64,000 nt of DNA. It comes from Raja brachyura. Its lineage: Eukaryota. Position 1 is the first letter of the stretch. Each line of letters starts with the position of its first letter. The translations under genes were made by a program, and so were the position numbers. The notes below the pieces were generated by a model. That model searched no databases and was not told the origin of the DNA. It saw nothing but the letters and a program-made list of their open reading frames with translations. Location of the stretch: NCBI GenBank assembly GCA_963514005.1, contig OY740789.1, positions 52,824,001-52,888,000 on the forward strand, written 5' to 3'. Shown piece by piece: positions 32,101-32,238 of the stretch.

Positions 32101-32238
32101 TCTTCTTCTTTCGTATGGCGTGCACAGCCTAAAGTTGTTGGACAACTTGTTCTATTTGATCTTCCGTTTGTGCACGTCGAGTTGATTGCATCAGTCGAAA
32201 CAGGGCGGACCACCGTGAAGGTTGCAATCTTCCACCCC
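32101..32238 (-). mobile_element. Short non-autonomous retroposon, copy 1 (HDV-like ribozyme head, (GAA)n tail; Ingi/Vingi- or RTE-type)
   Basis: 11-bp TSD cctgacctgct at 32090-32100 and 32239-32249; interrupts a Penelope-derived repeat; homologous over its full length to 48705-48838. Confidence 0.9.
32184..32238 (-). ncRNA. HDV-like self-cleaving ribozyme motif, copy 1
   Basis: GGGGTGG-AA-GATTGCA-ACC-TTCACGGT-GGT-CCGCCCT-G-TTTCGA-CTGA-TGCAATC = P1, J1/2, P2, P3, L3, P3', P1', P1.1, vestigial P4, J4/2 with C, P2'; G.U at position 1. Confidence 0.8.

Follow-up and report, generated by a model that had tools for sequence, protein, structure and literature searches.

The 64-kb window (the whole stretch of Raja brachyura DNA analysed, 64,000 nt) carries on its minus strand a mini-retroposon that, as judged by comparison with LINE copies in the same genome, is a non-autonomous internal-deletion derivative of a Vingi-like LINE (a bipartite non-autonomous LINE, or SIDE). 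Its LINE origin, its presence in more than 11,000 copies, its TPRT hallmarks, including target-site duplications (TSDs) of ~12 bp, and its fixed start at nucleotide G1 were observed directly. The element probably spreads as a deletion derivative whose P4-less HDV-like head releases its RNA from read-through host transcripts by cutting at G1, the LINE protein then recopying it. The window copy and the features around it are arranged as follows.

27567–27625, minus strand: homeodomain exon of a Meis2-like host gene, which appears to end at a GC donor
32034–32313, no strand: older interspersed repeat, the insertion host of the mini-retroposon
32090–32100, no strand: TSD at the 3′ side of the element, 11 bp
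32101–32238, minus strand: mini-retroposon, youngest subfamily (A), 138 nt here and typically 137 nt in the family
32101–32145, minus strand: part derived from the LINE 3′ end, with the last codons, the stop (32129–32131), the 3′ UTR and the (GAA)n tail
32117–32126, minus strand: putative 3′ strand of a candidate 5′–3′ stem, immediately before the terminal motif
32146–32158, minus strand: 13-nt junction filler, absent from the LINE ends and the mark of the mini-retroposon family
32159–32238, minus strand: part derived from the LINE 5′ end (nt 1–80), matching LINE copies
32169–32178, minus strand: putative 5′ strand of the candidate 5′–3′ stem
32184–32238, minus strand: predicted P4-less HDV-like ribozyme, with the predicted cut 5′ of G1 (32238)
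32184–32190, minus strand: P2 3′ strand, TGCAATC
32191–32194, minus strand: J4/2, with the predicted catalytic C (C75 equivalent) at 32194
32195–32201, minus strand: P1.1 G (32201) and the 6-nt loop replacing P4 (15–29 nt with a helix in relatives)
32202–32208, minus strand: P1 3′ strand, CCGCCCT
32209–32222, minus strand: P3 and L3, the latter 8 nt because of a private extra G, with the C22 equivalent at 32217
32223–32229, minus strand: P2 5′ strand, GATTGCA
32232–32238, minus strand: P1 5′ strand, GGGGTGG
32239–32249, no strand: TSD at the 5′ side of the element, 11 bp
48705–48838, minus strand: second, older copy (LINE-like subfamily C), with an 11-bp TSD and P2 broken by one change

The nested double-pseudoknot layout described in the initial annotation was found as claimed on the minus strand from 32238 to 32184, with P1 GGGGTGG/CCGCCCT (G1.U), P2 GATTGCA/TGCAATC and P3 ACC/GGT. 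In addition, J1/2 reads AA, L3 reads TTCACGGT, a single G follows P1, six nucleotides (TTTCGA) come next and J4/2 is CTGA. The head had been given as 54–55 nt; the window copy measures 55 nt through its private L3 G, while the family head is 54 nt long with an L3 of 7 nt. The reduced P4 annotated as U-UUCG-A was right in its letters, but it holds one pair only, and ‘no P4’ is the better term. The 11-bp duplication said to place the boundary at G1 is present; it ends in GG next to a G run, however, so the boundary cannot be set by the window TSD alone and is set by the family. All three host-repeat paralogues in the window hold the duplicated word once, as empty sites. The window copy has a G at −1 and a six-G run.

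A structure descriptor matched once in the window, at the mini-retroposon, and once in 30 Markov-simulated windows. When the window was scanned against Rfam, no ribozyme family matched at E≤1, such a match being no defining feature of the HDV-like fold, and the nested MFE of the head was ordinary (z −0.27) in a folding program that cannot form pseudoknots. As annotated, there was no tRNA A/B box: no tRNA was found, and the best Pol III A- and B-boxes had 2/8 and 3/9 mismatches, respectively, when scored against the consensus boxes. The 137-nt element likewise showed no Rfam RNA that could form a small-RNA head. A tRNA-derived SINE was rejected on the lack of a tRNA head and the poor boxes.

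Genome-wide collection of copies (2.7-Gb genome) revealed a real high-copy retroposon. A DNA search with the element returned 393 candidates, 40 of which were scored and were all 96–100% identical over nearly the full length. A 25-mer from the 3′ end had 2,836 exact matches in the genome and a junction 19-mer from the family-specific middle had 11,771 (reversed controls, 0 in both cases); since the 19-mer was intact in only 48 of 72 young copies, the true copy number is above 11,771. A 5′ pattern taken from the window copy matched itself alone because of the private extra G. Young copies differed from the column majority by 4.1% on average. Contigs from four sequencing runs contained pieces of the family in organisms A, B and C (hundreds to >1000 records) and in organism D (three records); such contigs give nothing on RNA starts or ends and have no bearing on expression or cleavage. 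Fold-back or head-to-head rearranged copies of the mini-element were seen at L037/L038, L065, L080 and L101, and a tandem segmental duplication in units of ~12.6 kb (L043–L055, G000:C1:14.57–14.95 Mb) repeats the same element copy at least 13 times.

The 5′ ends were analysed at 78 loci, that is, the first 90 of 100 listed matches to the 3′ 25-mer minus 12 segmental duplicates; sampling by this 25-mer carries no information on the 5′ end. Alignment began at position 1–3 in 72 of the 78 loci (at position 1 in 64). The remaining six comprised one internal deletion and one later insertion, both with the 5′ end kept, a rearranged pair, and two truly 5′-truncated copies. TSDs of 7–15 bp (mode 12) were present at 68 loci. 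The TSD ended exactly before G1 in 56 of the 72 copies (shuffled flanks: mean 0.35, maximum 3 in 200 rounds), so that the 5′ ends are fixed at G1, as had been anticipated, and not scattered. Among 107 junctions checked, 44 were unambiguous; 40 of these had four G, three had fewer and one had an extra G. Full-length L1 copies can carry a cap-derived extra G, according to the available text of PMC2912911. If it is assumed from L1 that the Vingi RT would copy a cap in the same way, the G counts lean weakly to an uncapped RNA. The base at −1 was a pyrimidine in 58 of the 72 copies; since the base preceding the TSD was also mostly a pyrimidine (38/55), this bias is read as endonuclease preference, not ribozyme selection. 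The first base of the TSD was a purine in 49/55 and the last a pyrimidine in 44/55, a pattern in keeping with nicks made after pyrimidines and with (GAA)n-tail priming.

The search for a LINE having both ends in common with the mini-retroposon was successful: the same genome holds a ~3-kb single-ORF Vingi-like LINE with identical 5′ (80 nt) and 3′ (45 nt) ends. Nucleotides 1–80 of the element match inverted LINE 5′ pieces as well as L352, an upright LINE 5′ end that has G1 as its first base and continues into the endonuclease frame; the final 45 nt of the element correspond to the 3′ ends of LINE copies. The element can thus be written as LINE nt 1–80, the 13-nt filler and the last 45 nt of the LINE. 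Like SIDEs, it has a LINE 5′ terminus, a LINE 3′ terminus with tail, no coding capacity and independent TPRT insertions with TSDs and a variable tail. Of the two sources of reverse transcriptase initially suggested, the Ingi/Vingi type was borne out by this LINE; an RTE partner was dropped, given the common ends and a domain layout that is not that of RTE. The term ‘SINE-equivalent’ holds for a retroposon using a LINE RT, but not for an independent SINE borrowing a tail, the element being an internal-deletion derivative.

Three exclusion patterns for the LINE gave only indel variants, truncated copies and a different composite repeat; they failed because the overlap of the LINE with the element was larger at the 5′ part, and smaller in the middle, than assumed. 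A fourth exclusion search found LINE 3′ fragments with the same tail at 2 of 27 loci. A search with one such fragment returned 704 candidates, and the 30 examined show staggered 5′ truncation. LINE copies lie ~4% from their own majority. No intact LINE copy was found in the genome, nor any LINE copy with the tail variant of the youngest subfamily (0 of 78). A nearly whole, broken copy of ~3 kb (L249) covers residues 29–1019 of the intact relative P0001; a young mini-element is inserted in the 5′ coding region of this copy of its own parent (L249:2802–2938).

Pfam domains in the broken copies comprise an APE endonuclease, an RT and a C-terminal Cys/His knuckle, and the homologues are single ORFs near 1000 aa. 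RNase H was found neither in the three intact relatives nor in the precomputed domains of the 120 homologues listed. The partner is likely Vingi-like, a label that we assume from the domain layout and C-terminal motifs. In the available text of PMC13708176, the lack of RNase H separates Vingi from Ingi.

The same LINE has given rise to several independent deletion junctions, and the head is kept in all of them. A 26-mer of the LINE 5′ UTR had 99 matches; of the first 30, 25 were short derivatives (with three other junctions) and 5 continued as LINE. The count of one junction type is too high, a single insertion having been duplicated near contig ends. This deletion-derivative insertion, with the same flanks near many contig ends (L266, L277, L355, L359–L366, L368, L370 and L371), suggests subtelomeric duplication. 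Eight of 40 LINE 3′-anchored loci (L228, L241, L245, L250, L253, L254, L258 and L259) carried an inverted LINE 5′ piece. These pieces come from the first ~75–355 nt of the LINE, mostly starting at nt 3–12, and are joined to a distant 3′ piece; the TSD spanned the whole insertion in three of seven checked. Unlike in ordinary twin priming, it is the very 5′ terminus that supplies the pieces, as though it had been held near the target.

The conservation of the helices depended on the level of comparison. Among inserted copies there was none (2.8% change in paired positions versus 3.0%; outside CpG, 64/2288 for paired and 34/1140 and 104/3444 for other positions), as expected of dead copies that decay neutrally; between source lineages, pairing is kept. 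The latter is the test relevant to function. All 17 pairs and the core letters were retained in 31 of the 72 young copies. In an alignment of subfamilies and LINE (180 copies, some picked by patterns inside the head; 36 unclassified copies left out), the lineage-level changes in the 54-nt head amounted to one in J1/2, two in J4/2 and one U-A to U.G pair. G1.U, U20/G25, C22–G38, the J4/2 C and its last A were the majority letters in every subfamily; we take them to correspond to the HDV active-site positions (position-1 pair, U20, C22–G38, G25, C75 and A78). Six nucleotides separate the P1.1 G from the J4/2 C, and there is no P4 helix. The numbering of C75 and U20.G25 can be found in the accessible part of PMC13635239.

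A descriptor match in a flank led to a second mini-retroposon family of ~203 nt (914 candidates), which shares the layout and has a real P4. Its source is another Vingi-like LINE, whose (GAA)n end is similar, and it occurs in several junction variants (L152–L171, L372–L401). Covariation of the kind suggested initially was seen against this family: six pairs were changed on both sides and still paired, all on one branch, the single split between the two families. Overall, 98.1% of cells were paired, versus 31–48% in slid-partner controls. Heads of foreign elements were sought at 80 metagenome loci with related ORFs, 40 of which reach near the N-terminus. HDV-like folds lay 120–210 nt upstream of 12 of these 40 Vingi-like ORFs (8 perfect, 12 at the near-perfect level) versus 0 of 80 control stretches; 28 of the 40 had no fold, some being too short or decayed. 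The 12 folds represent about seven distinct heads, all with a P4 region of 15–29 nt, and pairing across the seven lineages is kept while the letters change. MAFFT did not align the helices of the foreign heads, and its alignment was not counted. Among five full-length foreign elements, four have a TSD whose end coincides with position 1 or lies no more than a base away. Vingi-like LINEs thus commonly have, as their first base, position 1 of an HDV-like fold. Since the second family and all 12 foreign folds carry a P4 region, the 6-nt loop of the mini-retroposon lineage likely reflects a secondary loss of P4. The seven foreign ribozyme candidates at Vingi-like LINE 5′ ends (metagenome contigs L428, L439, L448, L456, L465, L467 and L469) are apparently undescribed; two begin with C, not G.

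The two ends of the element may also pair with each other. A 10-mer five nt behind P2 pairs at 9/10 positions with the one immediately preceding the terminal motif, the distance between them being 3 kb in the LINE. In the second family the 10-mers are spaced alike and again form 9/10 pairs, with 8/10 letters different. Anchored shuffles gave p = 0.0003 for the window copy, 0.0009 for the LINE, 0.001 for the second family, 0.0006 for L456 and 0.006 for L469, with weaker values for L465 (0.06), L483 (0.10) and L428 (0.70); some non-cognate 10-mer pairs reach 8–9/10 through G.U. A subfamily-B copy with a deleted 3′ part was uninformative for this test, and the counts for subfamilies B and C (4.25 and 3 of 10) were set aside, these copies having been picked for indels in that stretch. 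The candidate stem, found post hoc and supported in four of six lineages, is a lead. The recurrent deletion junctions fall between its two strands. No report of such end pairing was met in the literature, in a search not aimed at such a stem.

In the proposed cycle, a copy would be transcribed within a host Pol II transcript, for example in an intron, and the double pseudoknot would fold and cut before G1, so that the new 5′ end is structured and has no cap. The LINE endonuclease-RT, supplied in trans, would bind the 3′ UTR, and the 10-bp stem with the segment just behind the ribozyme is possibly part of that binding. The endonuclease would nick the target after a pyrimidine, the RT would prime on the (GAA)n tail, and copying as far as G1 would carry the ribozyme into each new copy. 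Self-cleavage of the mini-retroposon head is predicted from its letters; ribozyme activity of the same architecture is reported, in the portions available, for L1Tc/NARTc (PMC3383444) and R2 SIDEs (PMC3414825). Cleavage and a +1 start would both give fixed 5′ ends, since a 137-nt element is copied to the end of its RNA however that end was made. Several points count against cleavage. The 6-nt P4 region could impair the ribozyme, all relatives having 15–29 nt; judging from its sequence, G-U-UUCG-A-C can form a hairpin tying up the P1.1 G and the catalytic C; and the window copy is sense-oriented in an intron of a conserved gene. With its G at −1 and its six-G run, this copy may in any case be a poor cleaver.

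Two other accounts of the head share the LINE origin. According to one, at odds with the initial term ‘promoterless’, the head is an internal promoter, or a promoter plus ribozyme as in Pr77 of L1Tc, and +1 transcription sets most 5′ ends. The first 77 nt of L1Tc/NARTc act as both promoter and ribozyme, as described in the part of PMC3383444 available, an internal promoter would suit dispersed insertion in thousands of copies, and the accessible text of Kojima 2018 (PMC5786205) considers bipartite LINEs to be Pol II transcripts. Nevertheless, 43 of the 44 unambiguous junctions lack an extra 5′ G, and the conserved pairing with changed letters in seven foreign lineages is more readily expected of an RNA fold than of a DNA promoter; the Pol III boxes are poor and the second family contains a T5 run. 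This account seems unlikely. That the P4-less head is a relic, an inefficient cleaver kept as a fold bound by the LINE protein or shielding the 5′ end, appears distinctly improbable. The loss of P4 relative to all relatives seen, the competing UUCG hairpin, the tolerated sense orientation in the Meis2-like intron and the inverted 5′-end pieces, which suggest a protein holding the 5′ end, would agree with it; against it stand the core letters retained as the majority in every subfamily, the cleavage by P4-less HDV-like ribozymes reported in the text available of PMC10879173, and the need for something to set the end at G1.

A chance resemblance, in which an ordinary tRNA-derived SINE or repeat fragment happened to fit the descriptor, deserves practically no credence and is already refuted as to origin. 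The lack of an Rfam match and the unremarkable folding energy would allow it, but the descriptor matched only once in 30 simulated windows, the pairs are compensatory, foreign folds occurred in 12/40 ORFs versus 0/80 controls, the head is the LINE's own 5′ end and there is no tRNA. The preferred reading, cleavage of read-through transcripts at G1, has a wider form, which is put forward tentatively and with more doubt than conviction: the Vingi clade would possess an HDV-like 5′ ribozyme and a ~10-bp stem looping the RNA, both ends thus being kept by its parasites, and here the 54-nt P4-less core would be active, with thousands of copies still cleavable and some, sense-intronic as in Meis2, cutting pre-mRNA.

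Bipartite ribozyme-headed non-autonomous LINEs are already described (NARTc, RIME, R2 SIDE and Vingi-1_EE derivatives), so the family is no new class. NARTc and RIME (Ingi clade; partners L1Tc and ingi) similarly join a LINE 5′ HDV-like ribozyme at +1 to a LINE 3′ end and are dispersed and mobilized in trans, as far as the available texts go (PMC3383444, PMC4035085). The window family differs from them in its vertebrate host, its Vingi-like partner without RNase H, a (GAA)n tail in place of poly(A), its length (137 nt versus 263 nt for NARTc) and its 54-nt P4-less head (versus 77 nt with P4). The internally deleted, bipartite derivatives of Vingi-1_EE in the accessible text of Kojima 2018 (PMC5786205) belong to the same clade by domain layout and arose by the same route. 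R2 SIDEs of Drosophila also combine a ribozyme head with a 3′ recognition end, and their cleavage in vitro is documented in the available part of PMC3414825; unlike the window family, they are rDNA-specific, ~530 nt long and few in copies, and have a large ribozyme. Theta (minimal HDV-like) ribozymes share the P4-less double pseudoknot, the short J1/2 and the C opening J4/2, but nearly 99% of them come from phages, beside tRNAs (PMC10879173, as far as available); the window element lies in a vertebrate intron and no adjoining tRNA was found. Since the relatives of the window family have P4, its loss there was likely independent of theta ribozymes. A search of the literature, as distinct from the Repbase and Dfam libraries, met no report of a Vingi ribozyme, a P4-less HDV-like vertebrate repeat or the window family; further background is given in the available portions of PMC6765202 and PMC5753468.

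If the predicted cleavage is true, a P4-less HDV-like ribozyme heads a vertebrate retroelement in >11,000 copies; such ribozymes are known almost only from phages, with their function open, in the text available of PMC10879173. Since 31 of the 72 sampled young copies retain all pairs and core letters, thousands of candidate intronic self-cleavers would become testable. That bipartite non-autonomous LINEs arise from RTE, Ingi, Vingi and R2 but from no others is left unexplained by Kojima 2018 (PMC5786205), in the text available; if true, the presence of a ribozyme at the head of Vingi elements, together with the candidate 5′–3′ stem, would offer a concrete and testable answer. In RNA-based gene writing, Vingi-1 is employed with a template that carries both UTRs (PMC13708176, accessible part), and the repeated natural deletions of the partner LINE would, if so read, map the sufficient cis-sequences to about 80–90 nt at the 5′ and 35–45 nt at the 3′ end.

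The minus-strand exons of the window match Meis1/Meis2. The Meis2-like homeobox gene spans 22098–27625 (minus strand) of the window and G000:C9:52.89–52.97 Mb; its preceding homeodomain exon lies ~4 kb beyond the window, placing the element in sense orientation in a ~40-kb intron upstream of 27567–27625. The older copy at 48705–48838 has the same orientation as the window copy, in a sample too small for an orientation test. The repeat landscape would fit the cartilaginous fish named in the initial annotation. Elsewhere, a composite repeat (L094–L097, L117 and L118) carries one or two broken heads beside a long C/T-rich tract and ends in a hairpin followed by CTAG, presumably like a non-autonomous Helitron. 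Finally, the minus strand of L005 contains, near 672–1350, an open frame unrelated to the window family, with a C-terminal motif that we take to resemble those of restriction-like-endonuclease LINEs (HERO/NeSL).
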